A stretch of DNA of 29,950 bases, taken from positions 1 through 29,950 of the IMG/VR virus record IMGVR_UViG_3300008963_000020; one strand, written 5' to 3'. Shown piece after piece: positions 13,204 through 29,950 of the stretch. The position numbers and the translations under genes are program-made. Each line of letters opens with the position of its first letter. Position 1 is the stretch's first letter. Under the pieces are notes generated by a model. It was not told the DNA's origin. It worked only from the letters and a program-made list of their open reading frames with translations, and did not search any database. The DNA comes from a virus. Lineage: Duplodnaviria; Caudoviricetes.

Positions 13204-15387
13204 TTAGAGCTCAATAGCGGCTGCGGTTGCGCCACCAGTGGTGTCACGGAGAGCAGCTGCTACACCGTTGACACTAATGGTTGATGTCACCTTCAGTGAC
13301 TCGACTCCAACGAACGCTACGTTCTCGAAGGTCTCAACGAACATCTTGTAGTCGTTGGTTCCAACAAGTGAGCTGTCGCGGATGATACCTAGGTCTAGAG
13401 TTCCACCATCCAAGAATAGGAAGCTTCCCTCTGCGAACAGGTACCAGTCGAATGAGTCTGCAAACTCGTTAAGAGCTCCAGTACCCTGCGCACCGAATGG
13501 GTTTCCGTCCAAGGTTGGCACTAGGTCTACACCAACATTTGCTAGGTAACCGGTAATCTCCGACTGCGATACAGCCAAAGTTCCGTCACCTGGCATTGAC
13601 AAGGTCAAGTCCGCTGCCATCGCGTCATATACCCAGGCAGGAATAACTGCCTTCAAGCGTGTGCTTGGGTCTAGGCGGTGACGTGAACGGTAACCGGTTG
13701 CTGCGCGACGTAGCTGTACCAAGAAGTCACGGCCGAAGCCAATTAGGCTTGAGGTGGTAACTGCGGTTGAAGCTGCACCAATCTTGCTTAGCAAGTTAGC
13801 CTCTGCCTCACGTGCGTGCTGTACCAGACCTAGCTCGTTGTGACGAGCAATCAACTCTGGGTATGCACGAGTCATGAGGTTACCGAACTGCATCTGTAGA
13901 GTAATAGCGTCAGTTGACACTGTGTTCTCTGCAGCAGCGGTTACGGTGTAGCTGGTTTTTGCTGCTGGGTCTGGGCTATCGGCCGCATCGTTTGCAGCAG
14001 TCCAGACACCAACGGCGTCAGCATATGTACCGTCAGCGAACTGAGGTGGTGTTACAAAGCGGATACCGCCACGGTCAGCCTGGAAACGTGGCAACATGTC
14101 ACGAACCGGGCGAACGGTGGTTGAACCGACACTGTAGATGTCGTACTGAACCTCGACAGGTGCGGCGTGTCCACCGGAAGCGGTTAGGGCTTCCTGTCCA
14201 ACAACGGCCTCAATTTTAGCCTGGTTCTCTAGCGGGTCAGTACCGAGGAAACGCTCCTCTGGGTACTGGGTTGAGAAAGATGCAACGATGTGCTGCTCTC
14301 CATCTCCTCCGTTGACACGACGTAGGCCGTGCAGACGCTTTTCCATAGCGGCTGACACCTCACTCATGTCCTTCATTTCGGTGCCTGCCGTGTAGCCAGG
14401 AATGTCAGCACCAGCAGTGATTGCTACTGGGGCTTCGGTTACCTGAACAACGGGACGGCGGTCAGCAGGAGCTTCAAAGTTCTCCTCAGCAGATGCAGTC
14501 ACTGTAGCCTGCCCTTCCTCTACCTCTTCGGTAGCGTTAGATAGTTCAATTGTTGTTTCTTGTTCGGTTGAAGCTTCTGCTTCTTCCACAACCTCAGCTG
14601 AAAGCTCAGCCTCTGGTTCACTTTCGCTTGAGAGCTCGCTTGCTTCCTCAGCGGCAGCTTCTACGGTCTCCTCCTCGGCGGAAGCTTCAGCTTCTACCTC
14701 GGTCTCAACAGCAGCTTCTGCAACCTCTTCGGTAGCTAGCTCAGTCTCTGTGGAGTCTTCAGTTACTTCTTCTGACTCGGTTGATAGTTCTGAACCTTCG
14801 TCCTGAACAGTCGATGCTTCTTCGGATTCGGAGGCAGCCTCGGACTTGTCGTCCTCGTCCTCGTCCTCGTCCTCTGACTTGTCGTATCCCAATTCCGTGG
14901 TTGAAGCCTCAGACATTTCGTCCTCGTCCTCGTCCTCGTCTGAATCCATACCAGCTTCTGTTTCCTCTTCAGCCTCGTCCTCTTCTGAGTCCATAGCTGC
15001 TTCGGCGTCTTCTGGCATTTCTTCTTTGGTTTCCTCTTCTGGATTTTCATCCATAGATTTCTCCATTTCCTCGGTCTCGGGCTCCATTTCCATTTTATCC
15101 ATGGCAGCCTCTTCCTCTCCAGCCGCCTCGCTCTCGCCCTTGACACGAGCGGTTGCTTCAGCAGCTTTAGCCGCCAGCTCGGCAGCCAATGTCTCACGGC
15201 GAGACAACTCGGCGCGAACCATGTCAAGAGAGTCGGCTAGCGACGTCATAGCATCAACTGTCTCAGGAGACGGGTCTTCACCCTCAACCATCTCAAACTG
15301 GCTGACAATATCGTCTTGTAGCTCAGCGACTTGTTCGTCGCTTAGCTCAGCGATAGTGTCAAGCTGAGTTTTAATTTGGTCGTACAC
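13204..15387 (-). CDS. Major capsid protein (hexamer-type, HK97 fold) with fused N-terminal acidic scaffold, ~727 aa
   Basis: Start reassigned to GTG at 15387 (AGGAGG SD at 15392-15397). Motifs LTASGG-x-x-AP-x-x-x-x-YD, RPVRD-x-LP-x-F-x-ADRGGIRF, GNL-x-x-RAYPE and GGTLDLGIIRDS-x-L-x-x-TND. Confidence 0.9.
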   Translation of the reverse strand: MYDQIKTQLDTIAELSDEQVAELQDDIVSQFEMVEGEDPSPETVDAMTSLADSLDMVRAELSRRETLAAELAAKAAEATARVKGESEAAGEEEAAMDKMEMEPETEEMEKSMDENPEEETKEEMPEDAEAAMDSEEDEAEEETEAGMDSDEDEDEDEMSEASTTELGYDKSEDEDEDEDDKSEAASESEEASTVQDEGSELSTESEEVTEDSTETELATEEVAEAAVETEVEAEASAEEETVEAAAEEASELSSESEPEAELSAEVVEEAEASTEQETTIELSNATEEVEEGQATVTASAEENFEAPADRRPVVQVTEAPVAITAGADIPGYTAGTEMKDMSEVSAAMEKRLHGLRRVNGGDGEQHIVASFSTQYPEERFLGTDPLENQAKIEAVVGQEALTASGGHAAPVEVQYDIYSVGSTTVRPVRDMLPRFQADRGGIRFVTPPQFADGTYADAVGVWTAANDAADSPDPAAKTSYTVTAAAENTVSTDAITLQMQFGNLMTRAYPELIARHNELGLVQHAREAEANLLSKIGAASTAVTTSSLIGFGRDFLVQLRRAATGYRSRHRLDPSTRLKAVIPAWVYDAMAADLTLSMPGDGTLAVSQSEITGYLANVGVDLVPTLDGNPFGAQGTGALNEFADSFDWYLFAEGSFLFLDGGTLDLGIIRDSSLVGTNDYKMFVETFENVAFVGVESLKVTSTISVNGVAAALRDTTGGATAAAIEL
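14851..14940. repeat. Two (GTCCTC)n hexanucleotide microsatellites encoding Asp-Glu repeats in the capsid scaffold
   Basis: (GTCCTC)x4 at 14851-14874 and x3.5 at 14920-14940. Confidence 0.85.
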
Positions 15388-15391
15388 TGTA

Positions 15392-15507
15392 CCTCCTAGG
15401 CCAGTTTCGGTTAATGGACGTCGTAACGCCCTATGATTTACAATCAAGGTCAGGGACTTAGACGTAGCAAAGACGTCAAGGCACTAAACCTAATGTAATT
15501 TTACCGT
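15392..15507 (-). promoter_or_regulatory. Putative promoter (ACGGTAAAAT) plus structured ~100-nt 5' leader and SD of the major capsid gene
   Basis: TAAAAT at 15498-15503. Hairpins at 15461-15477, 15434-15446 and 15416-15431 (UACG loop). The 5' AGGTTTAGT can pair with ACTGGCCT next to the SD. Confidence 0.5.
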
Positions 15508-15520
15508 ATATTTTAGGGCA

Positions 15521-18500
15521 CTAGTTAAGGAGGCGGAGTAATTTACTCATCTCGGACTGCACCTCACCCTGGGAGAACAGGTCTCCACCTGACATATATG
15601 TTTTAAGCTTGTCCGTAGCTATAGCAGCGTCTTCTTTTCCAATCTTGCTTTCAACCCTGTTAACCATTCCCTCAATTAGGTCTTTTAGACCTGAAGGGAG
15701 GTCACTGTACTTAATTTTTTCTGCATCTTTACCAAAAGGTAGGGGTAAGTTAGAGATTGCTTTACCTAATTCGGCGGCCGTAGCCCTGACGTTTCCTAGA
15801 GCTTCCGGGTTAAGGGCTTTGGTGTCTAATCTGTCTAACATAACTAGTAGGTCAGACCCTGCGGCAGCAGAACGGACGTAGTCTCCAGCAAAATCAAGGT
15901 TGTAAGCTTCCTCGGCTTTTTCTAGAGCTTTCTGAGCACCTGAAACACCTAAATCTTGCTTTAGCCTAGCTAACACCTTGCGGTATTTACCTTTAGCATC
16001 ACGAGGTTGGTTAACGCCGGAGATATACTTTTCGCGTCCCTCTTCAGGGTCGAAATCTCCTCCCCGGCCTTCAGCTTTTTTTAATTCTTCTTCCTCGTCG
16101 GCTGCCTTCTTAGCATCGCGGAGCTGTCTATTGTCTTCCTCGTCAGGCTCTGCAAACTCAGAAGAAGCCGAAGCTGTTATGCCCCACTCTTCTGGAATCA
16201 TATCTTCGCGGTCTAAATCACGAGCACGCTTAACAATGTGCCTTTTTGCTTTATCAATGTCCTTAGCCCTACCATGAGCCTGAATAGCATCTTTCAAATC
16301 TTCAGTATCAGCTATAGGAAATGAGCCATCTGGAAGAGCTTTACCTTCTTCGGCGTATTTTTCGCGAGTTTCTTCGGTATAGTCCTTAAACTCTGAAGCG
16401 CTTAGCTCAGAGATTCTGTTCCTCATCTGAGCAACTTTAAACTCGGCAATATCTGACCTTGAGTATGAATCAAGCCTCTTTTTTGCCTTAGCTGCTCTTT
16501 CGCGCAAATCAGGCGTAGAGTGTGCTAGCTGTGAGAGCTTATCCGCTCTGGTGCTTAGCGTGGTGACTGCTTCAGATTTCATCATGGCAAAGAAGCTAGC
16601 GCCAGCGGCAACTAGTGCAAGTACCTCTCCCGATGCGACCATTGCACGTGCAACTGGGAAACCTGGAACATTTACCTGACAAACAGCAACAAGTTCAAGA
16701 GCTCCGCCGATTGGTCGCCAGTCTCCAGATGGGGCCGAGGCACGCAGTGCCCGCACTTCACTCTCCCCAACGTTTGGACGCAGTGAACCTGATACCCAAA
16801 TGCCGAACTCGTCTTCTCCTGCATGTACATCAGCAATTGCCGAAGCTGTGTCATCGTAATGCTTAGCTGCATCTTCTGCACTTGCACTTAAGGGGGCGTG
16901 CCCGCCTGCCAAGGTTAGCTGTCCGACTGGAACATCCTTACCTGCATCGGTGTGGACAACTCCAGTGTGGAAATATGCGTACTTGCTCCGTGAGCGCGGT
17001 GGCTTAGTTGAACGTGGCAATCCGATGTGGCTAACGTGCCATGCAGCAATATGCCCATAGATGTGGCCACTAGGGTCAACAGTCAGAGGGGTTGGCTTTG
17101 TCAGTCCAGGATTTTCGAACCAACCCTGTGGTGGAGTAACTGGGATTTCTCCAGCTAGGTATCCAGAAGCAGCTAGTGGCTCTAGATTAGTGAACTCATC
17201 CATTGACTCTTCGTAGAGTCCATCTTTCGGGGTCACGTCGTCCTCCTGATACCCAGATTGTTGAATAGAAATAGAGCATTCTTGGAATGCGGGCTTAGCT
17301 ACAATTGTAGCAGCCATGACCCTGGCCTTATTGATAATCAGCTTGTCCTTGCCCATCTCGCTGTCTTCAGCATTTTCAGATTTTTCTTCCTTTGCCTCAA
17401 ATTGGTCTAGGTCAGCTGAAACTCCATGGAGGAACCCGTGCTTAACCATTCGTTCGGCTTCGCGGCCATAGGGGCCGGTGTCGAACACTCCATATGCGTT
17501 TCCAATACCTTTATCGGTTTTTTCCATATAGTCAATTCGACCAACTACTACAGAACCGTCATGACCAGAGCCAGTTTTAATCTGCCATAGAAGCGGAACA
17601 GGCAGGTCTCTTACACCAATTGCACCCTTTTTAAATCTACGACCATCTCCAGAGTCTGCTTCTTCGGGGATAACTAGAGGAATGTAAAACTTTGCACCCT
17701 CTTTTTCCCTGCGCGCACTTGCTCGGAGAGCTACTTTCTCACGCGCATCTTCAGCTCTTGCTCGGAGTTCGCTCTGTTTTAAAATGATGGAGTCTAGTTG
17801 CTCGACGCTTTTAAACATAGCGCTCGAAAGGAGGCTCTTTTTTCCAACGTTATATTTACTGCCAGTGTAGACACCTGTCATTTCTTTGTGGCGAAGCTGA
17901 CAATATCCTTTTGCACGTGGCCCCATGTATTTAGAAAGATAGCGTACACAACGGGTCCAATCTCCAGGGGTATTCCACATAATCTTTGCGCCACCGATTC
18001 CACGGGTCCAATAACGGCGAAGATTCTCTGCGTTACCGCGGTTGCGGTCCAACCCACCGGCAGCAACAATACTGGTTACGTTCTTTTTCCAATACTCAAG
18101 CAATACGCCTGAAGCTGTTACGCTCTTCTCGTCAACTTGCTTTAGAACATCATTTAAAACTTCTTTTTCATCTAGCTCCACTACAGGCGGTGGGGTGGCT
18201 GACTTAAGGTCTGCCATTATTTGGTCGTTACGTACCCACTCGCCTTCTTTGCGCTCATACACAACAGGAGCTGTAGATTCTTTTGTTTCGGGGACAATGG
18301 CAACTAAGTCCATAACTGCACTAAGGTCGTCGGGGGAGACTAGAGCTAGATATTTAGCGGGAATGTCAGTTTCTTCTGGCGTCTGAGTAGCAGCAGCTGT
18401 AACAGCTGGCTTAAACTTTTTACGCTGGTCCAGAACATATGCGTCCCAGTTGTTGATTAGTTGCTGGAAGTCTCCAGCTTCCATAGGGGGTAGAGTGCCT

Positions 18501-19852
18501 GGCAGTTGAGCCTTAGGATATCCTTTAGGAGTTCTAGGCTCTCCTAGAATGCCGGAAGTATCTAGGGGAGATTCAACTTTAGGAACTCTACGTGGACCTT
18601 CTGCATCCTCTTCGGCCTCAGTAAACTCAGCGCCGACCTCTATTTCTTTTCCTGAATCTAGCTTGACTTTTACTTTCCCTGTTTTTGAATTAACAGAAGT
18701 AATTGTTCCAGAACCACGCTGTCTATCCCCGCCAACTACAGTACGTGCGCCGGCAGACACAAACTTGCCTCCTGCGTCGCGAGGTTGGTTTGAGGCCTTC
18801 TGAGAACGCTCTTCTTCGGTATAGTTACCGTCTTGGTCTGTAACTGGCTCCCCTGCAGCAAGCATCACCATATCAATCATGTCAAAGTCTTCTTCGTTAA
18901 GACCAGCCTCCATAAGGAATGTTTCCTCAGGGTCAATCTCTTCTAGCAAGATTGGCTCAAATGGACGCTCTTGCAAATAGGCCGAAACAATCATGGCTGA
19001 GGAGGGGTCGATAATCACATGGGTTTTTTCAACAGTATCGTACGGCTCATCTAAGGCACGGTCGTAAAAATAAATATCACTATCTACGTGACCTAGGTCG
19101 TCCCAAGAGCAGTCATCCCAGACATATACGCGACCATCAATATCAATCTTATATAGGCGGTCAATACCTGACCCATCCATGCGGACACGGGCCATAAACT
19201 CTGGACCTGCGTTCATATCTAAATCGTGAGCAACCTTAAAATCGTTTAGGTACGCGTCATACGTTTCGTCATTTGAGTAGTCCTCAAAAGCAGAAGCGGT
19301 CTTTGCTTCTTTCTTATCCTCGCGCTCCACAATGGCGGATGCCCAACGCTGACCAGCGTCTCCACCCCAAAGTGCCCATGCGATTCTGCCCGCAGAGGGG
19401 AAACCGTCTTCTCCGTACTCGTAGCCTTTAGCCTTCTTGTCTACTTCGTGACGAGGAAAATATTTTGCAATGTGGCGAACTTTTTCAATTCCAATTTGTC
19501 CACCCTTGGCCAAACGACGAGCTGTGTTGTAACCGACTCTGGTTCCACCTCGACCGTGCTCTTTACGCCACTTAAGACCTTTTTTAGCTTCCTTTTGGAC
19601 ACCGCCAGGAATAGTGTACATAGAACTTCCTGCAGCTGTGATTGAAGCTTCTACTGTAGATAGGGCCGCCGCGGCCAGCTCCTCGGTGATTGGCCCTACT
19701 GATGCATCTCTTTGGTCAGCTTTTGCGGCCATGGTAAGTAGCTCATGCTGAGAAAAGTCTTCAACTAGATTGCTGGCAACGTTAACTGCTGCATACATCC
19801 CGTCTTTCTCGAATACAGCATGCTCGTTGTTTTTACCAATAAAATTAATCAT
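15521..19852 (-). CDS. Multidomain capsid maturation (prohead) protease, 1443 aa
   Basis: Directly upstream of the capsid gene. Protease core SGDGRRF...LPVPLLWQ...GHDGSVVVGRID...GVSADLD...AATIVAKPAF (~17270-17690), with candidate His at 17561-17563 and Ser at 17417-17419. A second cluster-B-type domain follows (GHIAAW...YAYFHTG...HYDDT...GEDEFGIW...SGDWR...VNVPGFP), plus several small accessory domains. Confidence 0.85.
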   Translation of the reverse strand: MINFIGKNNEHAVFEKDGMYAAVNVASNLVEDFSQHELLTMAAKADQRDASVGPITEELAAAALSTVEASITAAGSSMYTIPGGVQKEAKKGLKWRKEHGRGGTRVGYNTARRLAKGGQIGIEKVRHIAKYFPRHEVDKKAKGYEYGEDGFPSAGRIAWALWGGDAGQRWASAIVEREDKKEAKTASAFEDYSNDETYDAYLNDFKVAHDLDMNAGPEFMARVRMDGSGIDRLYKIDIDGRVYVWDDCSWDDLGHVDSDIYFYDRALDEPYDTVEKTHVIIDPSSAMIVSAYLQERPFEPILLEEIDPEETFLMEAGLNEEDFDMIDMVMLAAGEPVTDQDGNYTEEERSQKASNQPRDAGGKFVSAGARTVVGGDRQRGSGTITSVNSKTGKVKVKLDSGKEIEVGAEFTEAEEDAEGPRRVPKVESPLDTSGILGEPRTPKGYPKAQLPGTLPPMEAGDFQQLINNWDAYVLDQRKKFKPAVTAAATQTPEETDIPAKYLALVSPDDLSAVMDLVAIVPETKESTAPVVYERKEGEWVRNDQIMADLKSATPPPVVELDEKEVLNDVLKQVDEKSVTASGVLLEYWKKNVTSIVAAGGLDRNRGNAENLRRYWTRGIGGAKIMWNTPGDWTRCVRYLSKYMGPRAKGYCQLRHKEMTGVYTGSKYNVGKKSLLSSAMFKSVEQLDSIILKQSELRARAEDAREKVALRASARREKEGAKFYIPLVIPEEADSGDGRRFKKGAIGVRDLPVPLLWQIKTGSGHDGSVVVGRIDYMEKTDKGIGNAYGVFDTGPYGREAERMVKHGFLHGVSADLDQFEAKEEKSENAEDSEMGKDKLIINKARVMAATIVAKPAFQECSISIQQSGYQEDDVTPKDGLYEESMDEFTNLEPLAASGYLAGEIPVTPPQGWFENPGLTKPTPLTVDPSGHIYGHIAAWHVSHIGLPRSTKPPRSRSKYAYFHTGVVHTDAGKDVPVGQLTLAGGHAPLSASAEDAAKHYDDTASAIADVHAGEDEFGIWVSGSLRPNVGESEVRALRASAPSGDWRPIGGALELVAVCQVNVPGFPVARAMVASGEVLALVAAGASFFAMMKSEAVTTLSTRADKLSQLAHSTPDLRERAAKAKKRLDSYSRSDIAEFKVAQMRNRISELSASEFKDYTEETREKYAEEGKALPDGSFPIADTEDLKDAIQAHGRAKDIDKAKRHIVKRARDLDREDMIPEEWGITASASSEFAEPDEEDNRQLRDAKKAADEEEELKKAEGRGGDFDPEEGREKYISGVNQPRDAKGKYRKVLARLKQDLGVSGAQKALEKAEEAYNLDFAGDYVRSAAAGSDLLVMLDRLDTKALNPEALGNVRATAAELGKAISNLPLPFGKDAEKIKYSDLPSGLKDLIEGMVNRVESKIGKEDAAIATDKLKTYMSGGDLFSQGEVQSEMSKLLRLLN

Positions 19853-20204
19853 TTACTGCAGGGCTCCTACCAAACTCATCATGCACAATCTTGGCATTTT
19901 CTATAAGGTGCTTTTCTGTTAACTTATTGTCTTTATAAAGGTCTAAAGTTTTTACATCTTTGTTGTCCCAGTCGACTTTATAGACCATATAGTTTTGCCA
20001 CTTGGTGTATCCTCTGTCCTCTTCACCGTTGAGCGGTACCCAGTTTTCTGACTGAAAGTCCCACTCGTCAACACCTAAGGGAGAATACATCCATGCTGTT
20101 TCCACTCGCCTAGTTGTAGGATGAACATAGAAAAGCACGTCCACGCCAATATCAGTCTTATCAGAGATTGGTTCAGACTTCTTTAAAAACTTGTTGCCCA
20201 TCAA
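19845..20204 (-). CDS. Hypothetical protein, ~119 aa
   Basis: GAGAAGG upstream; 3' end overlaps the protease start by 8 nt; Trp/Tyr-rich beta-like sequence. Confidence 0.75.
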   Translation of the reverse strand: MMGNKFLKKSEPISDKTDIGVDVLFYVHPTTRRVETAWMYSPLGVDEWDFQSENWVPLNGEEDRGYTKWQNYMVYKVDWDNKDVKTLDLYKDNKLTEKHLIENAKIVHDEFGRSPAVND

Positions 20205-20227
20205 TTATACCTTCTCTTGTGCTTTGT

Positions 20228-20578
20228 CTAGTCTACCACTTCAGAGCCGTCTTCAAGAGAACGAGTACCTTTACCTAGGCCTAAAGAAGCCATAGTCGGG
20301 TGCTCGCCAGTAATCTTCATTTTCTCTGAAGGGAACATTACATTGAGCAAATACACTGTTGTACGCAAATCTGTCAACGTAGTTGGTAAGTAAGGCCCCT
20401 CGGGTGTGGCGGGAAAATTCTCACCGTATTCATTTACAAGGATGTCCACGAAGGCTTGGATAGTTTGCTCCTGAGCATTTGCTTCAAAGTCATCCTTATC
20501 AGCTAAAAGCCCTTCTTCGGGAGTCCACTCGAAAGAAAGCCCGTCTAAGTTAAAACTTACTGGTTCTGTATATTCCAC
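20228..20578 (-). CDS. Small acidic hypothetical protein, 116 aa, translationally coupled to the giant gene (candidate partner/inhibitor)
   Basis: GTG start overlaps the TAG of the 2591-aa gene (TAGTG); contains an FPATPEGPYL motif. Confidence 0.7.
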   Translation of the reverse strand: MEYTEPVSFNLDGLSFEWTPEEGLLADKDDFEANAQEQTIQAFVDILVNEYGENFPATPEGPYLPTTLTDLRTTVYLLNVMFPSEKMKITGEHPTMASLGLGKGTRSLEDGSEVVD

Positions 20579-23500
20579 TAATCACTCGACCTCTCCAGCC
20601 GTTCGGCTATTGTCTTGGTATCTCCCTCTTTTGTTTTAAAAGCAAGGAGCGTACCAAGCATATAATTTACCGCATCTTGGTCATATGAGTCAACTGGTCG
20701 TCCCACCTGGTGCGAAACGTCTATTGGATTACTAAATGCAGAGTCCTCATACCACTTGCCGTCTGCTGAGTTGTAGTAGCCAGTCTTCACGTTATCAGGC
20801 ACCACCGTGTTTCGAGCATTAACATCTCTATAAATAACTGGCCTGCCATTAGGTCCTTTTGCGACCGCAAATAAGCCTTGACCGTTTATCGCCCTGTTGT
20901 TGTATGTACCAAATACTGATTCAAACAAGGTAGTGCCGAGTTCGGTTGCATTTTCGTCAGGATTGTTAGCAAGATTTGCATTCCTTCGTAAATATACTTT
21001 TGTACTGTACGGCACAGACACGTCTGAGACTAGTCCAACTTCTTTTTTAGAGTATCCGGGTAAAGTAGATAGCTCGAAAATTTCATTTCCATCTTCGTCA
21101 ACTTTCTTACTTCGGTTATATACATATGCTCCCTCAGCGCTAACTAGGTCTGGGTTAGTTTTTTGAACAAAGTGCCACAGTTCATGCAGAGCGTTGTTGC
21201 CATGAGGGCCTGACCCTCCTTGCTCGGGGAAAAGGCTAGATTTATCATTAGCTAACTGAAGACCATAACTACCATCAGTATAAACACCAAAGTAGCCTCT
21301 TCTATCATTTGATTTGCTGACACGAATTACTTTACCTTCGGATTCTAGGTCATCAATTAAGCCTTGAATTATAGGTCGTGGCATGAATTGAAGTGCATCG
21401 TTAATAGACTTTCTAAAAGTACTACTAGATGGCAGAGGCTCGTCTTGACCGAAACCGAAACTATCAAACTTATGTAGATATTTGTCTAATTTTAAAACAT
21501 TAAACTCGACACCTTGCTCCTCCAGCTCCTCTTTAAGGGCTCGGCGGAAAAGATTAGAAACCTCTGCTCTTTTATCTAAGGCTCTCTGAGACGCGGCTCT
21601 TTGCTTTTTTCGAAGTTTCTCTGTATCGGAGCGGGAACGTCCGCTTCTAACTGAGGTCTCTACTTCCAACCTAGCTGATTCTTTTTTAGCATCCAAAACT
21701 TCAATTTCTTTTTCCAACTTTTTTACATTAGCCTGGAACTCTTCGTTATCATTAAAACGTTTTACAGCTTTATTGTATACATCCTCCCCGCCAGCTCTAA
21801 ACTCTTCTACTTTGCTAAGAGCCGCATCAGTAGGACGGTAGACACCTTTTGTCTTGTCGCCTTTTACTGGAGCAACAGCCTCGCCGAACTCGCCTTTGCG
21901 AAGCTGCTCTGCAGCATCTGCTGTTGAGCGCCTCGGGATTAACTGCACGCCTGGTACCAAGTTTGAAACACTGCTAGCCGCTCCCGTCTCCCCCGCAGGT
22001 GTTGCTTTAGGAGTCGGCATTTCTTGCTTAGTGGCTATTTTGTTTAGGAGATTCCGAGCCGTTTTCGCAACTTCCTGATACTCGTTTGCAGTCAGGTCGG
22101 GGTTGTCTACAGCATTAAATATTTTTTCATACTCCTCTGACATAGATGTATCTTCATCTAAATCATCAGCACGTAGCTCACGTAGGCGGTCGGCAAGCCC
22201 TCTAAGTTTTAGTCTAGCGGCTTCAGACACAGGCTCATCATCTTTAAATGGAACTGTATCTCTAGGCTCTACTTCCTGCTTAATGTCTTCTTTATCGGGG
22301 GTCTCAAGCGCCTCTTGCTCTTCTTTCCTGTTCTGCTTAGCAAGGTCTGTCTGAAGTTCTTCCAATTCTTTTTCGGTACGACCTTCAAAGTCTTTCAGAA
22401 TCTGGTTGTCTGTCTTTCTGTAGAAGACCTTTAGCTCAGGGTCATATGCAACATCTGGTCGCTTCGATAGACGCCTCAGCGCAAGGTCCTCCTCGCGAAT
22501 CCAGTGTGAGTACTCGTCAATTTCTGAATCCTGGTCATCAGACAACTTCATGTTGTTCGTGTTGAGTCCCTCAGGCAATCTCTTACCCTTAAACTCTACC
22601 TCGGCGTAGTCAGAGAAGGTATACTTACCATCGTTGGGGTTCTCTACAGCCTTAAGAGCCACGATGCGACCCCTAGATACTACACCTTCATTATTCTTCC
22701 ACTCAACAACATCACCTACCGCTAGCTGCTTGTTGTCACGGTCAACGTGGGTAACTATCGGCCTACTTTTATCAGTTCCTCGGCCGCTGTTCAGACGTGA
22801 TTTAACGCTCGATAGGAAAGCGGATAGCTGCTCTTCATTAGCATTGGGGAACTTCTCACGCATGGAGCTTTCAAGGAAGTCATAAGCCTTATCTTTTTGC
22901 TCAGGTGTGTTAGGTAGGGTACCTACATAGCTAGCGAAAATACGCGCAGCTGCTTCTTGGTCACCATTGTCAAAGGCTGAATAGAAAGAAGGAACTTCTC
23001 CTCTACGCTGAGTCCAAAAGACTGTGTCATCTGTATTCAGCTGCTGGTTACGACCACTGAGCATAATCTTTGCGTGCTCTTCAGGGGTGCGCAGCTTCAA
23101 GTCCGTATCATTCTTTCCGGTTTCAGCAATGTTGTCGGCGTTGGCTTTGCGTAGTCTACTAATACCACCATAGGCACCACCGTATAGACGACGCTCTTTG
23201 TCTGGGTTCGATGCCAAATCAAAATCTTCGTCTGGACGCTCGATGTATTTATTTAGAAGGTTCTCAATACCGCGACTCTGCTGAGCCTTGCCACCCACAC
23301 CCACGAGAGATGCGAAGGAGTTACGAGGGCTGTAGTGGATGTATTGCTCTTTACGACCGTCAACATCAACATCAAAAACAAGCATCATCTTATTGTCGTC
23401 AGTTTCTTTGACTTTAATCTGAACGCTGACTTCTTGTCCCTCTGCGGGGCCAAACTCTTCTTTATAGGTCTTGCGGTGAACGACAATAGAGCCGTCCGAA

Positions 23501-26500
23501 GCGATTCCTGCTTCTGGGTAGTACTCCAAAAGCTTGGCTTTAATATCTTCGGGGGTACCAGAGCCTTTGGCCTCTTGAATATCCTCAGGCCTAAATGGAG
23601 TTCTATTTACTTCAGAAACACCGTTGTCATACCGCTCTAGGTCTGTAGGTATTAGACCTGCGGGGGTAGGCTGGAAGCCTTCAGGAACGTTTGTATAGAT
23701 GTCCTCGACGTCAGGAGTTGGGTCTGCAACGACTGTCTCTTCAGGCTCTTCTACATCTTCTATCTCTTCTTCGTAGTCGTCCTCGTCCTCGGTAGCTCTC
23801 CGCTCGAGCTCCAAGCGACGTCTTTCGTCTATCTTGCGGCGGGTCTCTTCTAGAGCTTCCCTAGCCTTTCTTAATTCGTCTATAGTATCGGTGAGGTCTC
23901 GGTCCTCAACGGGACGACTTCGAGGTTTTCTACGTTCTAGAGGGAGGGCGTCAGTGCCGTCCTTCTTAACCCTAGACAACCTAGCTGCCGTGGCTGCCGG
24001 GCTTACGTTACCGTCCTCAAGGTCGTCTTGGAAGTCATCATCTTTAGAGACAGCAGTTTGGATTTCCTCGAAATCAGCAGGGTCTCCTGTCTGCCTATAC
24101 CTATCTATTGCCCTCTTGACTCTTCCATCTCTGTCGTAATTCTCGAAGAACTTCTCTAGCCTGTCTAAGTTGGCATCGTCTGAGTCTTTAATTCTGTTTG
24201 GGAAGTCTGCCTCGAGCTCGTCCCATGAGTTGTATTTCTTTGTGCCAATCTGAGGATTAGTGCGTGGACGCAGCGTGATTGTTCCATCTTTGTTCTGCTT
24301 AACGTTCCAACGCTCACCGTTTACATATTTACTATATGTACCGTTTACGGTCTCTGTCCATGTTTCTACAAAACTTGGTGTCTCTGTAAACTCGGTGGGT
24401 AGCGAATCCTCAGGGACGTTATCCTTACGCATGTCGTCGACAAGCTTCTTTGCATCTACTTCTGCTTGCTCAGGGGTGGCCTTTTTCTCAGGAGTACGGG
24501 CATCTACAGGCTCGTCTTTAGCGTAAGTAATTTTTCCATCTGCCCCGTCGTGCTCAACGCTAACTACATCAATACCACTCTTGGTTCGTCCTTTACGAAC
24601 ATTAGTGACTTTTCCAAGCAGTCCGCCCTCGTCATCAAAAATCTCGTCTCCGACTTTAACGTCTGCAGCAGTCTTACCGGGTGTTCTGGTGCTAGGAGCT
24701 TCCTTTGGCTCAGGAGCCTTTGGAGTTTCTGGTTCTCTAGGAGCGGGCTCTTCCCGAGGTTCAGGCTCGCCAAACTCCAAGCGTGAGACGCGGTTGCCTT
24801 TACGGAAAGTTTTTTCGTAGGGGTCTCCGGCTTCGTCTGTTCCTATTAGAAGAACTTCGTCGTTCTCCAATCCTTCGCTGTCTTCCAAGCGGACATTTTT
24901 ACCTGTCTCCGGGTCAACAAAGAAAGTGTCGTCATCTGGGTCAAGGTCCTCAACCGCAGCTCTTCTTGTGGTTCTAACCGGCCTGTCAAAATCAGAGGGG
25001 GTGTCATCTGGGTCTACATCCAGACCATCTACATCATCGTCAAAATCGAACTCGTCGTCGTCTAGCATGCCTGAAGGGGAGAAGCTAGCTTCTTCCAGCT
25101 GTGGCATATTCCAGGCAGCTGCACCGACATCAGGTTCTCTATCCATGGCCTCGTTGGCAGGAACTACACCTTCTCTACCTTGGTAGTCGCGTAGCCACCC
25201 TAGCTTACCGAGTGACATTTTTTCTCTAGCCCTAGTTACAGCTACGTATATAGTACGCATCTCTTCCATAGACGGCATCTTAGTCTCAGAAGTAGGAGTA
25301 CCGTCTTCGGCGTTAGTTAGGGCTTCTTTTGGTTCAGGGAAGTCTTCACCAATAATGACATTATCTGCCTCCAGACCCTTCATTCGGTGAGTAGTTGTTA
25401 CTCTAACGTCATAGTCAGGGTCTTCGTCAGCCTTTGGCTTCAACCCCTCTGGCACCTTGTTAGAAATTTCAGCAATAACGCTTGCTCGCTGCTCATCGTC
25501 AGCATTAGGCATGTATTTGCTCCACACCTTGTTGGCGCCATTCCACCTAAAGCCTTTGCTCTTTATGTAGTCCTTAAACGTTGTATCGCTATCAATCTTT
25601 GCAGTGACAGCTTTAAAGTCACCAGAGATTTCTATATTGCCTTCATCATTAACTTTATAGTTTTGGCGCTGTCCGCCAATATCCAGCAGAGTGGCTTCCT
25701 CGCCTGGAGCTCCCGTAATCTCATCAGAAATTAGGTTGGATGCTCCGCCCTCCGAATCATTCAAAACCTTCAAGTTTGGAATAATATTGTCTTCGACTTC
25801 CTTCAGGCCTGCTTCCCAGTCGTTGCCTCCAATCTTGGTTAACAGGTCTATCCACTTAGAGGCTCTTGCCTCTTTGTCGATTGCAATTAAGTCCCTGACA
25901 TCCTTCATCGTTCGAAGTCCCGCGAAGTCATCGCTGTCAGCATCTCTACCGTCAGGAGTTTTTGGAGAAGCACCTCTTGAATCAAAGTCAGTGTCTTTCA
26001 ACCACTTCAAGGTGTATACAGCATTCTCTAGGTCAGTCTTAAATACTGGCAGAACACCTACACTTCTTCCTTCTTCTAATAGCTTCTGAATCTCGTTCAA
26101 TCCACCTGAATTAGAACGGACAATAATTACAGTGTCTTCATCAGGACCCATGGGGATTGCGTCCCGGTCAACAATTTCCCCGCCTTCTCCAACTGCCCTA
26201 ATTCTTGTGTCACTACCAATTAGGTTAAGAGCGGCGTTACCGGGGCCCGCTAGTTCTGGACCAAAGCGACGAACCATAGTAAGAGGTAGAACAACCTCGG
26301 CGTCTTTACTTGCTTTCTTTAGTGCGTTAATTGCACCATTCCACTCATAGATTGCCTGGTTAGGGTCTCCAACGTGGACTATTTGAACATTCTTCTGATT
26401 CTTAACTACAGCAGCAACTGCCGCGTTTGTGTCCTGAGCCTCGTCAAAAAATACTGTGTCAACTTTTTCGCCGTTGACTTCCATCTCGCTTAGGTCAGGT

Positions 26501-28353
26501 TCACTTAGGGACCACATTTTGACTGAGTGATTTCCTTGCACCCTAATACGCTTGCCCTCGTACTTGCCCTCTGACTTGTTGTAATTAGGGTTGGTACCGC
26601 GCTGAACATCTGCCCAATAGTCATTAGCATAGTCCAGGAGCTTTGCTACTACTTTATCGTCGGGCTTGGCGTCTGGCTTATCTTCTGGCCTAAACTTTGC
26701 TACAGCAGCTAGAACATGCTTGCGTGAAATCTCTTTATCGTCACTGTTAGAAAAACGCCCGACAATCTTGCCTACTATGTTAGCAACCTGCGGAGACGTA
26801 AAGTTCTCTCCAAAGAGAGGCATTTCATCGTAACCCTTTAGCTTTGCAATAGCTTTATCTCCTGAAGCAACATAACCTTTGCGGCCATTCATGGCTGCTT
26901 TTTGGTCTTTGGTTAGATATGCATATGCTAGAGAACTTGTCGTACGTGCCTCTGTATTTTCCTTCGGCATACGTCTTTCAGCTTCTAGCTGGTTCTTTTT
27001 ATTAAACTGTAGAGCTAGTACTCGAGACTTGGGCCTTTCACGCTTAATTGCCTTGGCAGCTGCTACTAAAGTTGTAGTCTTTCCTGAACCTGCAAGTGCA
27101 TTAACTACTGTACGGTATCCACCTCTAACAACGGCATTAAGGGCATTGGTCTGCTCGTCACTTGGTGTGAAGCCATCAAAATCTTCTACATATTCTTCAG
27201 GCTGTCCTAAAGCTTCTATCTCAGAGAGTGAAACCTTCTCCTCGGTCTCCTCAGGCTCCTCATACTCTTGCTCGGCTTTTTCTTTATCTTTTAAATCTTC
27301 TTCGGTGGGCTGCTGCAGGGGGCGGGCTGGTTCCTCAGGGTAAACCTTTGGCTCGTCATCTTCAAAAATGATTTCATCATCATCATCCAAATTTAGAGGT
27401 GACCCCTCCACCTCTTCTAGCTTGGGAGCCTCTTTTTCTTCTTGTTTTCTTTCTTTTTCTCTTCTTTCTTTTTCTCTTCTTTCTTCTCCTTTTTCAAAAT
27501 CTAAATCTCTAAAAGGAGTTTTATCAAATTCATCAACTGTTTCTAAGGGGGAGCTTCCACTGGTATCAGACACTAGCCCTCTAATTTGTTTACGAGTTAG
27601 AGGCTTACCAACCTGTTTTCCAGTTTTATTAGAAACTTTATACCACTGACCGTCCTCTTCATTTTTTATAAATCTTTTCCAGTCCCCCTCTGTACCTGTA
27701 GGTCCCTTTTGCCTAATCTTGGTTCCCTTAGGCAGGTTCAGGAACTCTACTAAGTCTCTTAGCCCAGCAAAAGATTTTTTCTTTTTTACTGGCTCGCCGA
27801 CAATGTCTGATACGTCTTGACCGGTTTTTGCTTGCTCTGAGAGAGCTGGTGGAAGTTTAGCCAGCGGCTCTGCCTCGCGCTCTTTGCGGAACTCAGCGTC
27901 TTCTTCGTCAGTTAGTTCGCCAAGAGCCATCTCACGGTCGAGCTCGGAGGCTTCTGTGATGTTCAGGTCTTCAATGTTTTGAGGTTGGTCAGCAACATCT
28001 TCTGGCAGCTCGTGAGCAAGGTCTGGGTCAATACCCTTCCTTCTAAGGAAGTCTTTATCAATCTGAGCGGTCAGTAGCTCACCGTTAGATGAGTTAATCT
28101 CTAGGACATCGCCCTTTTTTATGCCATATTCTGCAAAGTCGTCGTTGGTCACATAAGAACGAATCTTCGTTCCATCGTCATTACCGCCGATAGCACGTAA
28201 GTTATTGACGTTTACTGTCTCGCGTTGCTTGCTATTCCCGGAGAAGGCGCCAATAGCTGCTCTCAGGCGGGCACCAGTGGTTACCCAGCGTCCTTTTTTA
28301 TCACGGGGTTGCTTGCGAGCGTTTATGCTTCGCTCTAGCGAGGTATAAGCCAT
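20578..28353 (-). CDS. Giant polyvalent protein, 2591 aa: QPRD leader, SF1 (UvrD/Rep/FBH1-like) helicase, SH3-like repeats and C-terminal HExxH zinc metallopeptidase
   Basis: GAGGA RBS. Helicase motifs in order: Q (SDEQ), I (ALAGSGKTTT, ~27071-27097), Ia (LQFNKK), II (FFDEAQD, core DEAQD at 26431-26445), III (VGDPNQAIYEWNGA), IV (LTMVRRFG), IVa (IVRSN), V (TTHRMKGLEADNV), VI (EEMRTIYVAVTRAR, ~25228-25270). HELWH at 21172-21186 with downstream ATELGTTLFE. Confidence 0.85.
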   Translation of the reverse strand: MAYTSLERSINARKQPRDKKGRWVTTGARLRAAIGAFSGNSKQRETVNVNNLRAIGGNDDGTKIRSYVTNDDFAEYGIKKGDVLEINSSNGELLTAQIDKDFLRRKGIDPDLAHELPEDVADQPQNIEDLNITEASELDREMALGELTDEEDAEFRKEREAEPLAKLPPALSEQAKTGQDVSDIVGEPVKKKKSFAGLRDLVEFLNLPKGTKIRQKGPTGTEGDWKRFIKNEEDGQWYKVSNKTGKQVGKPLTRKQIRGLVSDTSGSSPLETVDEFDKTPFRDLDFEKGEERREKERREKERKQEEKEAPKLEEVEGSPLNLDDDDEIIFEDDEPKVYPEEPARPLQQPTEEDLKDKEKAEQEYEEPEETEEKVSLSEIEALGQPEEYVEDFDGFTPSDEQTNALNAVVRGGYRTVVNALAGSGKTTTLVAAAKAIKRERPKSRVLALQFNKKNQLEAERRMPKENTEARTTSSLAYAYLTKDQKAAMNGRKGYVASGDKAIAKLKGYDEMPLFGENFTSPQVANIVGKIVGRFSNSDDKEISRKHVLAAVAKFRPEDKPDAKPDDKVVAKLLDYANDYWADVQRGTNPNYNKSEGKYEGKRIRVQGNHSVKMWSLSEPDLSEMEVNGEKVDTVFFDEAQDTNAAVAAVVKNQKNVQIVHVGDPNQAIYEWNGAINALKKASKDAEVVLPLTMVRRFGPELAGPGNAALNLIGSDTRIRAVGEGGEIVDRDAIPMGPDEDTVIIVRSNSGGLNEIQKLLEEGRSVGVLPVFKTDLENAVYTLKWLKDTDFDSRGASPKTPDGRDADSDDFAGLRTMKDVRDLIAIDKEARASKWIDLLTKIGGNDWEAGLKEVEDNIIPNLKVLNDSEGGASNLISDEITGAPGEEATLLDIGGQRQNYKVNDEGNIEISGDFKAVTAKIDSDTTFKDYIKSKGFRWNGANKVWSKYMPNADDEQRASVIAEISNKVPEGLKPKADEDPDYDVRVTTTHRMKGLEADNVIIGEDFPEPKEALTNAEDGTPTSETKMPSMEEMRTIYVAVTRAREKMSLGKLGWLRDYQGREGVVPANEAMDREPDVGAAAWNMPQLEEASFSPSGMLDDDEFDFDDDVDGLDVDPDDTPSDFDRPVRTTRRAAVEDLDPDDDTFFVDPETGKNVRLEDSEGLENDEVLLIGTDEAGDPYEKTFRKGNRVSRLEFGEPEPREEPAPREPETPKAPEPKEAPSTRTPGKTAADVKVGDEIFDDEGGLLGKVTNVRKGRTKSGIDVVSVEHDGADGKITYAKDEPVDARTPEKKATPEQAEVDAKKLVDDMRKDNVPEDSLPTEFTETPSFVETWTETVNGTYSKYVNGERWNVKQNKDGTITLRPRTNPQIGTKKYNSWDELEADFPNRIKDSDDANLDRLEKFFENYDRDGRVKRAIDRYRQTGDPADFEEIQTAVSKDDDFQDDLEDGNVSPAATAARLSRVKKDGTDALPLERRKPRSRPVEDRDLTDTIDELRKAREALEETRRKIDERRRLELERRATEDEDDYEEEIEDVEEPEETVVADPTPDVEDIYTNVPEGFQPTPAGLIPTDLERYDNGVSEVNRTPFRPEDIQEAKGSGTPEDIKAKLLEYYPEAGIASDGSIVVHRKTYKEEFGPAEGQEVSVQIKVKETDDNKMMLVFDVDVDGRKEQYIHYSPRNSFASLVGVGGKAQQSRGIENLLNKYIERPDEDFDLASNPDKERRLYGGAYGGISRLRKANADNIAETGKNDTDLKLRTPEEHAKIMLSGRNQQLNTDDTVFWTQRRGEVPSFYSAFDNGDQEAAARIFASYVGTLPNTPEQKDKAYDFLESSMREKFPNANEEQLSAFLSSVKSRLNSGRGTDKSRPIVTHVDRDNKQLAVGDVVEWKNNEGVVSRGRIVALKAVENPNDGKYTFSDYAEVEFKGKRLPEGLNTNNMKLSDDQDSEIDEYSHWIREEDLALRRLSKRPDVAYDPELKVFYRKTDNQILKDFEGRTEKELEELQTDLAKQNRKEEQEALETPDKEDIKQEVEPRDTVPFKDDEPVSEAARLKLRGLADRLRELRADDLDEDTSMSEEYEKIFNAVDNPDLTANEYQEVAKTARNLLNKIATKQEMPTPKATPAGETGAASSVSNLVPGVQLIPRRSTADAAEQLRKGEFGEAVAPVKGDKTKGVYRPTDAALSKVEEFRAGGEDVYNKAVKRFNDNEEFQANVKKLEKEIEVLDAKKESARLEVETSVRSGRSRSDTEKLRKKQRAASQRALDKRAEVSNLFRRALKEELEEQGVEFNVLKLDKYLHKFDSFGFGQDEPLPSSSTFRKSINDALQFMPRPIIQGLIDDLESEGKVIRVSKSNDRRGYFGVYTDGSYGLQLANDKSSLFPEQGGSGPHGNNALHELWHFVQKTNPDLVSAEGAYVYNRSKKVDEDGNEIFELSTLPGYSKKEVGLVSDVSVPYSTKVYLRRNANLANNPDENATELGTTLFESVFGTYNNRAINGQGLFAVAKGPNGRPVIYRDVNARNTVVPDNVKTGYYNSADGKWYEDSAFSNPIDVSHQVGRPVDSYDQDAVNYMLGTLLAFKTKEGDTKTIAERLERSSD

Positions 28354-28429: not shown

Positions 28430-28975
28430 TTAAATATAGAGGTCAATATCGTTTATATTGTCGACTATCTCACTAAACTTAGCCCAGCGGAAGTTCTGCC
28501 TATCCGTAGGCATCTCTACATCACCCCTAGTTAGATAGTCTTTAGAGTCGTTCACCCAAGCAGGTACATCATCTAAGGCTTCAAAAATCTCTTTAGAAGA
28601 ACCGTCAGCTAGAGCAAGTTCTGCGGCTTTATTGGCTTCTGCATATTTTGAAAGAATCAGTTTTGCGACCTCTTCCCGCAAACTAGCCTCGTTTTCCGGA
28701 TTTTCCAAATTTTCCAAAGTGTCATAAAAGTCAGAAAAACCGTCAATCATGTATTTTTCCATTGGGTCATCAGTTTCGGGGTTTTTCATTTTTTCAACAT
28801 ATGTGTTAAAAACCGAAATTTTTTCTAACTCTTCTTTAATTCGCTCTTTGGTCTCTCCTCGGGCCGCCATGCGGGTAATAGCACCTTTAGGGTCAAACAT
28901 GTCCTCGCCAGTAACAGGCGATGTTTGGGTAGATAGCGCCCCTATAAAATCCATTCGACTTTCGTTATAGCTCAT
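28430..28975 (-). CDS. Hypothetical acidic helical protein, ~181 aa
   Basis: Start reassigned to ATG at 28975 (GAAGGA upstream, 11-nt overlap with the previous gene). Confidence 0.7.
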   Translation of the reverse strand: MSYNESRMDFIGALSTQTSPVTGEDMFDPKGAITRMAARGETKERIKEELEKISVFNTYVEKMKNPETDDPMEKYMIDGFSDFYDTLENLENPENEASLREEVAKLILSKYAEANKAAELALADGSSKEIFEALDDVPAWVNDSKDYLTRGDVEMPTDRQNFRWAKFSEIVDNINDIDLYI

Positions 28976-29438
28976 TCTCTGCGGCTTCCTTCTCAAGGTC
29001 TTTAACTAAATTATACACGTCTGTTGAGATTTGACCAGTCTCTTTTAAAATTTCTAGACGCTTCCATGCGTGGATATTAGAAAAGTCATCTAGGTTTTGG
29101 TTAACGGCTGATGCAATAAGAGCGACTTTATTTTCGTCCAAACTAGAGCTACTACTTAGCCAAGCAAGCTTGCCTTCTACTGATGTTTGGTTGTGAATAT
29201 AGTTTTCTGGGAACAAGTCCAAATCTCTTGTGTACCCAAAGTTTTCTCCGACCTGAGCCAAAACAAACTCTGTTGCACGTGAAAGAGCCTTCTCTTCATC
29301 ATTAGATATTTGAAGTTCACGATAGGCGACCTCTTGCACGCCACTAAACTCTATGGGCTCATCTGCTGGACGCGATTCGTTAGCGTAGGCAACTACAGAA
29401 GCTAGGTCTTTATATAGTTCCCTGTGCTCTTTATTCAT
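28965..29438 (-). CDS. Hypothetical protein, ~157 aa
   Basis: Start reassigned to ATG at 29438 (ATGAATAA overlap with the upstream stop); contains a DLDLFPENY motif. Confidence 0.7.
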   Translation of the reverse strand: MNKEHRELYKDLASVVAYANESRPADEPIEFSGVQEVAYRELQISNDEEKALSRATEFVLAQVGENFGYTRDLDLFPENYIHNQTSVEGKLAWLSSSSSLDENKVALIASAVNQNLDDFSNIHAWKRLEILKETGQISTDVYNLVKDLEKEAAENEL

Positions 29439-29950
29439 CCTCAATTCTAGACTCCTTAGGTAGTAGGTCGGCATCTGGACTGTCATATAGAGCTGTTGCT
29501 AGAAGAGCTGCTCGCTTGACAGGGTCTCCACCATCTTTTTCAGCTCGCAAATAAGCCGCCCTAAGTGCTGGAAGCACGTCGTACGACATGTCGGAGAATT
29601 CTGCTAGCTCGAGGAGCGCTTGCTCGTGAGAGTCGTAATTCTTAGCTGGCTTGAGTTCGATAAATGTCTCTTGCGTGGCTGCTGCCGCTGCTGTGATTGC
29701 ATTATCTTTTTTGGAAGAACGCTTATGTGCTGCTGGCAGCAAGTCGTTATCTTGAACGTATTTACTGTTTTTTGGGTTACCATTACGCAGTAGGTAGAGG
29801 AATGCATTTACTCTAGCCATTGACCATGAGTTTCTGTTTTGGTCTGGACGATGTGAAGTTGAGAAAGCGCCAGCACCACGACGGTAAACAGCTTTTAGAG
29901 TGCGAAGATTTGTTTTCTTGCTCTTTGCATCTCCGTGCTTTTCGTTGTGC
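29431..29950 (-). CDS. Head-module hypothetical protein, partial (start beyond the right edge), with LKAVYRRGAGAFSTSHRP...ARVNAF...DNDLLP domain
   Basis: The frame stays open upstream of the track's ATG (29820) to the window end: HNEKHGDAKSKKTNLRTLKAVYRRGAGAFSTSHRPDQNRNSWSMARVNAFL. I recognise this motif from small domains in phage head modules (DUF5824-like, from memory, unverified). Confidence 0.75.
   Translation of the reverse strand, partial: HNEKHGDAKSKKTNLRTLKAVYRRGAGAFSTSHRPDQNRNSWSMARVNAFLYLLRNGNPKNSKYVQDNDLLPAAHKRSSKKDNAITAAAAATQETFIELKPAKNYDSHEQALLELAEFSDMSYDVLPALRAAYLRAEKDGGDPVKRAALLATALYDSPDADLLPKESRIEDE

Follow-up and report, generated by a model that had tools for sequence, protein, structure and literature searches.

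The P1 protein DarB is packaged in the virion and co-injected. It is the antirestriction archetype of the polyvalent proteins, and in the accessible text of Iyer 2017 (PMC5512222) the helicases of phage polyvalent proteins are of the SNF2/SF2 type and occur with a methylase. UvrD-like SF1 helicases are described there in polyvalent proteins of actinomycete plasmids, with no mention of phage head modules in that text, which also defines the zincin core as an HExxH helix following a three-stranded sheet, with a Glu on a later helix. Among SF1 enzymes, FBH1 is described in the available part of its report as a 3'-5' motor with a divergent 2B region that clears RAD51 filaments and is active on forked DNA (PMC12946210).

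The window analysed here is a stretch of 29,950 nucleotides from a caudoviricete. A preliminary description had placed in it a 2591-aa ORF with SF1 helicase and metallopeptidase motifs joined by long acidic linkers, two small ORFs upstream of a prohead protease and no replication genes, and all of these points were borne out (Table 1). The Asp+Glu content of the linkers peaks at 30-46% per 50 aa, and among the 19 window ORFs scanned with Pfam and PHROGs (short ORFs in 1-2100 left out), no replication gene was found besides the helicase of the giant itself. The giant gene comes after the terminase and portal genes, and pieces of it are 100% identical in another assembly. Scans for DNA repeats, promoters and terminators gave nothing beyond chance. 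Four blocks of the protein outside the helicase and peptidase are also conserved (aa 13-190, the small block and D4 of Table 1, and aa 1555-1990, covering D5); these blocks and the complete lack of cysteine had gone unnoticed in the preliminary description.

Table 1. Features of the window and of the giant ORF; all lie on the (-) strand.
Feature	Position	Remarks
Giant ORF, SF1 helicase and predicted zincin	20578..28353	2591 aa, 0 cysteines, 20% Asp+Glu
N-terminal header, aa 1-110	28024..28353	helix, QPRDKKGRW and small beta domain; predicted head-loading tag
FBH1-like SF1 helicase, aa 381-1082	25108..27213	all motifs intact: Q (PSDEQ) 27151-27165; I (ALAGSGKT) 27076-27099; Ia 26998-27018; II (DEAQD) 26431-26445; III 26344-26373; IIIa 26263-26280; IV 26110-26121; V 25369-25395; VI 25228-25248
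Insert of ~105 aa between helicase motifs IV and V	25429..25746	typical of fused forms
Small conserved block, aa 1225-1295	24469..24681	conservation
Alpha/beta domain D4, aa 1310-1480	23914..24426	conserved, without family match
Domain D5, aa 1556-1990	22384..23688	conserved, without family match
Long helical hairpin, predicted, aa ~2176-2280	21514..21828	
Zincin-like metallopeptidase, predicted, aa 2281-2572	20638..21513	HELWH (aa 2390-2394) 21172-21186; conserved E2471 20941-20943
Two small ORFs between giant and prohead protease	19845..20578	116 and 119 aa
Prohead-protease protein	15521..19852	1443 aa; header motif twice (aa 356, aa 1282)
Major capsid hexamer-type protein	13204..15447	
173-aa ORF	28965..29486	weakly like the ~190-aa region fused ahead of the header in other giants

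The complete, ordered set of UvrD/Rep/FBH1-like motifs claimed for ~25200-27170 agrees with the motifs Q to VI as mapped here, and the residues of Walker A, Walker B and motifs III, IV, V and VI are invariant in 16/16 aligned orthologues, as expected of a UvrD-like SF1 enzyme with its catalytic residues in place. The domain matched Pfam UvrD-helicase (E 4.5e-15) and phrog_1967 (E 9.7e-65, aa 386-1047), and the closest solved structure by sequence was human FBH1 (PDB 9xzj, E 2.2e-19), followed by GajB (1e-5), with no structure of UvrD, Rep or PcrA among the PDB matches at E 1e-3. By likeness to FBH1 and UvrD, the helicase would be a 3'-5' translocase. Its ~105-aa insert showed a weak likeness to DUF5710 in one relative. 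An orthologue of UvrD, Rep, PcrA or HelD was rejected on the best NCBIfam score, 58 bits against an equivalog cut-off of 543. Gabija GajB is defined by an adjacent GajA nuclease gene; here, GajB profiles matched short motif stretches only, and no nuclease/ATPase family was found in the neighbouring genes with Pfam and PHROGs.

The C-terminal HELWH...E zincin motif claimed previously was upheld both by conservation and by structure prediction. H2390, E2391, H2394 and E2471 are invariant in 16/16 sequences of one alignment and 19/19 of a second, and HExxH lies close to the C-terminus in all 24 best matches (window protein counted). The peptidase model (pLDDT 87) consists of a helix, three strands, the HExxH helix and, further along the chain, a helix headed by E2471, which is the layout of a zincin core. 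No significant PDB or Pfam match was obtained for the domain, including the Pfam profile MPTase-PolyVal (PF18818), and the model of aa 2150-2591 had no PDB match at E 1e-3, the rows of a wide search covering the helical hairpin only; a new fold is not demonstrated by that result. A tblastn search of cultured phages with the last 590 aa gave no match, and a search for stand-alone peptidases returned a single 159-aa fragment among 4242 candidates. Among the cultured relatives, Atuin gp71 lacks HExxH, and the HExxH domain of Talia1610 gp77 is not detectably related to the window peptidase. For the two domains between helicase and peptidase, the model of aa 1300-1990 likewise gave no fold match at E 1e-3 (best Z 8.3), which does not establish a new fold, and D5 had no usable match in the ESM Atlas. 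The C-terminal end of D5 (aa ~1865-1940) forms an SH3/KOW/Tudor-like barrel in the model, with a middling score against a DSIF KOW domain (Z 7.9, rmsd 2.4, 61 aligned).

The giant is one of a family of proteins, 2-6.5 kaa long, whose genes lie between those for portal and protease in phages of actinobacterial type. From 160 loci fetched by helicase motifs, 21 had a helicase ORF longer than 1300 aa (17 distinct proteins, window's phage counted). Close homologues lying mainly in replication modules had been named as evidence against a head role, and our neighbourhood survey found all 21 giant loci to be head-linked: 19 with a same-strand portal, protease or capsid marker, one with the post-portal gene and one as a prohead-protease fusion itself. 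None of 118 stand-alone helicase loci had head markers, a weak control because these markers are lineage-specific. Cargo domains are exchanged within this slot: the 60 giant matches comprised fusions to Peptidase_S78 (10), ArdC-N with MPTase-PolyVal (17), DEDDh exonuclease (15), primase (2) and NUDIX (2), and one locus carries four ART (ADP-ribosyltransferase) domains. The earlier reading of the giant as a polyvalent, head-associated protein is thus well supported by its context, namely the head linkage and the fusion of the helicase to ArdC, ART and prohead protease in relatives. In cultured phages (Talia1610 gp77, Atuin gp71) the gene order is portal, giant annotated as helicase, protease and capsid. 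In Talia1610 a separate helicase is encoded next to Pol I, RuvC and RecA, and the header-bearing giants in the same slot of A3Wally and DSL-LC01 have no UvrD match whatsoever; the giant is therefore not the replication helicase. A search for DnaB (0/5 records) was uninformative.

The N-terminal header, QxRDxxG(R/K)(F/W), is shared by the giant, the prohead-protease protein and the helicase-free giants of the same slot, the header and the protease module being aligned by hhalign at 95.4% (E 2e-8). Of 46 giants without S78, 39 have it, whereas none of 10 fused to S78 and none of four of a separately branching type does, as though anchoring were achieved either by the header or by fusion to the protease. 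Head-module loci had 33 occurrences of the motif in 136,322 residues vs two in 929,947 residues elsewhere, counts for which the regular expression and profile were derived from the same proteins. Searches of the PDB gave four matches to the motif profile, the best three being virion proteins (best E 0.0046), and none with phmmer. The 173-aa ORF upstream of the giant resembles the ~190-aa region preceding the header in other giants with E 5e-7 among 8 window proteins and 6e-4 in the locus set. The header motif is not discussed in the available text of the Milano and JBD30 papers, and nothing relevant was found in the literature on an RDxxG motif in phages. In 17 of 52 contexts the header is preceded by a short Ala-rich putative cleavage site, which is absent from the window giant, so the position of a cut is not indicated, and the only internal repeat of this site was inside the helicase. 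Two of 18 header members, both protease copies, resembled the NF-YA/CCT profile PF02045 under the cut-off (best E 0.014). It is conceivable, and we would put it no higher than speculation, that a portable ~30-residue NF-YA-like tag (helix and QxRDxxGRF) grips packaged DNA, whatever enzyme follows it in the chain being thereby loaded and ejected together with the genome, and that its passenger in this lineage is a virion-borne, FBH1-like anti-recombinase stripping RecA filaments or R-loop complexes from entering DNA, with this clade as the closest relative of eukaryotic FBH1 among viruses of prokaryotes.

Only fused forms of the helicase are almost devoid of cysteine, with 18 cysteines in 43,760 residues of fused spans and 376 in 29,488 residues of stand-alone spans, counts that are not independent samples. 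Four stand-alone helicases of the same clade have 3-4 cysteines each, and in Talia1610 cysteine makes up 0.79% of the enzymes and 0/2709 residues of gp77. Non-virion plasmid-type giants are also cysteine-poor (0-2 per span).

The explanation we prefer, with somewhat more confidence than doubt, is that the giant is a polyvalent-type head cargo, packed via its header and likely ejected with the DNA, with helicase and peptidase acting in the next host. The gene would be expressed late, and the protein would probably be packed inside the head through the header; overall, its delivery to the next host along with the DNA appears slightly favoured. Early in infection the helicase would translocate 3'-5' on phage DNA that is single-stranded or forked, where, very tentatively, its job may be to strip off bound host proteins or to unwind branches. 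The peptidase may, tentatively, cut the polyprotein into working modules, and cleavage of a host target seems less probable still; nothing in the data favours host defence proteins as its substrate over self-processing. The literature yielded no virion proteomics on any family member. A protein of an estimated ~290 kDa would have to be unfolded or fragmented to cross a long tail.

Alternatively, the giant could be anchored at the prohead and do its work in the cell that produces the phage, where it would unwind branched or recombining concatemers ahead of the packaging motor; instead of being injected, it would then be cleaved into pieces or stay behind. A gene placed after terminase and portal, a header common to the giant and the maturation protease, the exonuclease and primase domains of relatives and the action of FBH1 on forked DNA (available text of PMC12946210) are all consistent with such a role. 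However, the helicase is missing entirely from some phages with this head module, the ArdC, ART and NUDIX cargo found at this position suits a new host better than work at packaging, and the loss of cysteine would not be expected for a job confined to the cytoplasm. We regard this alternative as unlikely.

It is less likely that the giant is a soluble late recombination or repair helicase (an anti-recombinase) that merely lies in a late operon and does not enter the particle. In a first helicase tree, 66 of 70 giants fell on one side (three partial rows and one two-helicase protein were left out). When the nearest stand-alone matches were added (59 selected rows), strict monophyly of the giants was no longer recovered, since four stand-alone helicases fell inside the 34-row clade (SH-aLRT 100); giants alone as a clade were not rejected by the AU test (p 0.35). 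Outside the head clade branched two giants of SNF2 or related type, one of them with a name from Asanoa. Two of the four in-clade enzymes (L017, L047) lie in non-structural phage regions, so helicases of this type also function as ordinary soluble enzymes, and stand-alone relatives occur among replication or metabolic genes (Satis gp83 and the same two loci). Against this stand the uniform head linkage of the giant loci, the fusion to prohead protease and the confinement of the header motif to head-module proteins. Nothing relevant was found in the literature on Satis or Racecar.

A further possibility, which we consider improbable, is that the giant is injected and acts chiefly through its peptidase, directed at a host defence protein, the helicase only carrying or positioning it on DNA like a DNA-dependent protease. 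In close relatives the peptidase has indeed diverged faster (60% identity vs 84% for the helicase; pN 0.275 vs 0.104), and BFVD rows for the peptidase were weakly SprT-like (E 0.04). The synonymous sites of these relatives are saturated, so no test of positive selection is possible; the faster change may instead reflect relaxed constraint, and the peptidase is missing or replaced in cultured helicase giants. Finally, an inner structural or scaffold protein with inactive enzyme domains as passengers, although in keeping with the long acidic linkers, the helical hairpin and a lack of cysteine as in capsid and tape-measure proteins, is very improbable given catalytic residues that are invariant despite ~30% overall identity and a helicase core among the most conserved parts.

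If the giant is packaged and ejected as we prefer, it would be an SF1 motor delivered by the virion to act early in infection; we found no report of such an enzyme in phage heads. The candidate loading tag carries cargo of 1,600 to 6,500 residues and could be used to load phage heads with proteins. Cultured soil phages with header and helicase, and others with the header only, make packaging, ejection and the tag directly testable.

The helicase core of the window protein is similar to that of FBH1; it differs in its 2B-region insert and its fusion to phage cargo domains, and the F-box of FBH1 has no counterpart, no F-box family being found at E 0.1. No relevant literature was found linking FBH1/UvrD to phage, or the hexamer protein to a helicase. 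The Arthrobacter phage proteins Talia1610 gp77 and Atuin gp71, both annotated as helicase and without a functional study that we could find, share the slot after the portal, the header, the helicase clade (31% identity), the absence of cysteine and 20% acidic residues with the window giant, but not its D4, D5 and peptidase. ArdC of plasmid R388 (PMC7213743) similarly combines an ssDNA-handling domain with a C-terminal metalloprotease and is fused to this helicase in the 17 giants counted above; the window giant has no ArdC-N, and a motor where ArdC has passive ssDNA binding. DarB is of similar size and has a helicase-like motor, but a DarB-type protein (adenine methylase and SNF2-type SF2 helicase) was rejected with Pfam, as the window giant has neither domain and carries an SF1 motor instead. 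The suggestion that an SF1 helicase in this role may be undescribed does not hold for polyvalent proteins in general, given the plasmid cases in the accessible text of PMC5512222, which form a separate branch; for the SF1-helicase clade of phage head modules it stands, in that no paper on it was found. Like the polyvalent proteins of that text, the window giant is a large multidomain chain with at least two domains of unlike activities, encoded among portal, packaging and head genes and bearing a zincin-like HExxH, and its relatives carry ArdC-N, MPTase, ART and Toprim primase. The polyvalent class itself is already known, and the window giant is an SF1 variant within it.

The window's giant is most likely, to judge from sequence comparisons, a packaged, genome-borne protein that would clear DNA in the next cell. 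Its ORF lies on the minus strand (2591 aa), and comparison with 57 other matches resolved conserved blocks separated by acidic linkers. All the SF1 motifs that the preliminary description had placed, in order, at ~25200-27170 were found there, and the C-terminal HELWH...E motif was also confirmed, HELWH (aa 2390-2394) and E2471 being invariant across the aligned orthologues.

Conserved blocks of the window's giant
Block	Position in giant (aa)	Strand	Basis
Header	13-190		conservation vs 57 matches
SF1 helicase	381-1082	minus	all motifs, in order
Small conserved block	1225-1295		conservation vs 57 matches
D4	1310-1480		conservation vs 57 matches
D5	1555-1990		conservation vs 57 matches
Helical hairpin + peptidase	2160-2572		conservation vs 57 matches

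Neither D4 nor D5 had a family match; the C-terminal end of D5 is an SH3/KOW-like barrel. Among solved structures, human FBH1 gave the closest sequence match to the helicase (E 2.2e-19); passages of PMC12946210 describe it as a 3'-5' SF1 motor that strips RAD51 filaments and whose 2B is divergent. Between motifs IV and V, 26 of the 27 fused helicases that could be measured (30 examined) have 201-383 aa, and all 25 measurable stand-alone ones (27 examined) have 103-116 aa; one of four inserts scanned matched DUF5710 (E 2e-4).

Among the best 7999 candidates of 1425-4535 aa, 60 giants were found, some of them carrying ArdC-N plus MPTase-PolyVal (17), DEDDh exonuclease (15), prohead protease (10), primase (2) or NUDIX (2). 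A search of shorter proteins gave eight matches at E 1e-20, with identity of at most 34% over 58%. Two motif scans that did not select for length, from which the top-ranked 80 of at least 316 and 80 of at least 167 matches were taken, yielded 160 loci. Of these, 118 have a complete stand-alone helicase, 21 have a giant, and in 21 the ORF has an open end. Every one of the 21 giant loci (17 distinct proteins, two loci being the window's own phage) was head-linked, so that the neighbourhood survey proposed earlier did not place giant helicases mainly in replication modules. Head markers occurred at 0/118 stand-alone loci, a weak control because they suit only the giants' head type. In a 59-row tree, a branch with SH-aLRT 100 separated 30 giants and four stand-alone helicases from the remaining rows, which include two giants that we label plasmid-type because they have SNF2 partners and one is named from Asanoa. 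One of the four (locus L017, 9992-12313) lies in a metabolic-gene region beside an opposite-strand gene resembling the post-portal protein, and may be a head-module fragment that has been displaced.

Giants of 6,544-6,548 aa occupy the portal-protease slot in two loci (L012 467-20113, L014 1484-21118), the former with helicase, DEDDh exonuclease, four ART domains, and weak KTSC and WYL matches. Two other head-module giants fuse helicase, DnaG-type primase, and exonuclease (L060 3468-12201, L062 2969-12340). Second header-led giants were seen within single head modules (L013 154-5613, L015 14943-21935, L171 1-5484), one with ART and DUF3626; thus, two cargo proteins per phage are possible.

Overlapping contigs place terminase and portal upstream of the window's giant; downstream are the prohead-protease protein, a capsid hexamer-type protein, tail tube, adaptor, tape measure, and Dit. 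The 129-aa ORF at 29431-29820 is one truncated end of a post-portal protein that has 416 aa in full (comparison locus L002, 6518-7768) and precedes most giants. The 1443-aa protease protein (15521-19852) is composite, with several unknown PHROG blocks and two header motifs, and its counterparts in L009, L013, Talia1610, and DSL-LC01 are divided over two or three genes. Hydrophobic-x-Ala-Ala/Ser-Gly sites, repeated in this protein and present in the capsid protein, may be maturation cut sites; such a site lies upstream of the header in 17/52 contexts vs a 6.9% background. The capsid protein shares 72% identity with its counterpart in Actinomycetia phage DSL-LC01, a metagenome assembly going by its paper's title, and ~26% with mycobacteriophage hexamer proteins; the host is therefore probably actinobacterial.

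In cultured phages, Talia1610 gp77 (2709 aa) and Atuin gp71 (3113 aa) both follow the portal, and Mimi and Racecar gave similar matches. Talia1610 has a second, separate helicase in a Pol I-RuvC-RecA module. Just before its portal, a phosphoribosyltransferase and a nicotinate ribosyltransferase are annotated (L001 11604-14207), which we take to be possibly an NAD-rebuilding counter-defence. Several separately annotated terminase pieces precede the portal in Microbacterium phages A3Wally (L167 2686-4606) and Cece (L174 4359-5701). In A3Wally, Cece, and DSL-LC01, the same slot holds header-led, acidic, nearly cysteine-free giants without helicase (no UvrD match in A3Wally or DSL-LC01, both searched). 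Slot and header are thus constant and the cargo can be swapped, a pattern that speaks against the giant being essential for replication or packaging; a packaging aid acting in the producer cell is an unlikely alternative.

The header is shared with the protease protein (54% identity, 30-residue core; profile match 95.4%, E 2e-8). Head-module loci contained 33 copies of its motif, against two in a sevenfold larger amount of other sequence, a partly circular test; the motif was present in 39/46 non-protease-fused and 0/10 protease-fused giants, again partly circular and from non-independent lineages. A phmmer search of the header against PDB found no match; the best PDB matches of the motif were virion proteins. 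Unrelated phages also carry QxRDxxGRF in virion proteins, baseplate hub or other (9rku_Af, 8fqc_C1, 8rk3_c), so it may be a general virion-interior motif. The NF-YA DNA-binding motif profile matched weakly (2/18 members, E 0.014). Cysteines are ~30-fold scarcer in fused than in stand-alone helicase spans, and the four stand-alone helicases of the head clade retain them; cysteine loss may reflect an extracellular stage. A soluble late helicase is improbable.

For the packaged, DNA-clearing protein, we propose that the giant would be produced along with the head genes, brought into the prohead by its header, and freed in the next cell after accompanying the genome; its motor would clear proteins or branched structures off phage DNA, and the peptidase would process the giant's own chain. 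This mechanism is weakened because the peptidase is unconfirmed and exchangeable among relatives, no cut site is visible in the window's giant, and ArdC protease activity is dispensable according to PMC7213743. In the C-terminal model (pLDDT 87), a helix and three strands precede the helix bearing HExxH, which is followed further along by one headed by E2471, a layout agreeing with the zincin core as defined in sections of Iyer 2017 (PMC5512222). The proposed structure check thus supported the core topology in a predicted model, and fold searches confirmed no named zincin, PDB lists being filled by the helical hairpin. BFVD matches were three uncharacterised phage proteins (E 1.6e-5 to 1.2e-4), and ESM Atlas matches were unnamed clusters (0.92-0.93), one with 17% ATLF-family members. 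An effector led by the peptidase has little probability. The helicase catalytic residues show no variation in 16/16 aligned orthologues, and an inert scaffold is very hard to credit.

The polyvalent-protein reading stood in part, as the giant shows the features of phage-type polyvalent proteins testable from sequence and lacks the testable features of P1 DarB. That the protein may be undescribed also needs narrowing. We found no paper on a giant-helicase head clade in literature that omits most subscription papers, and a jumbo-phage review mentions SF1, in the sections available, solely in recombination; SF1 helicases in polyvalent proteins are already in Iyer 2017 (PMC5512222), whose accessible text names them only for actinomycete plasmids and whose FTP supplements may hold phage cases. 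What appears new is the clade of SF1 giants encoded among phage head genes; the polyvalent class is a known kind.
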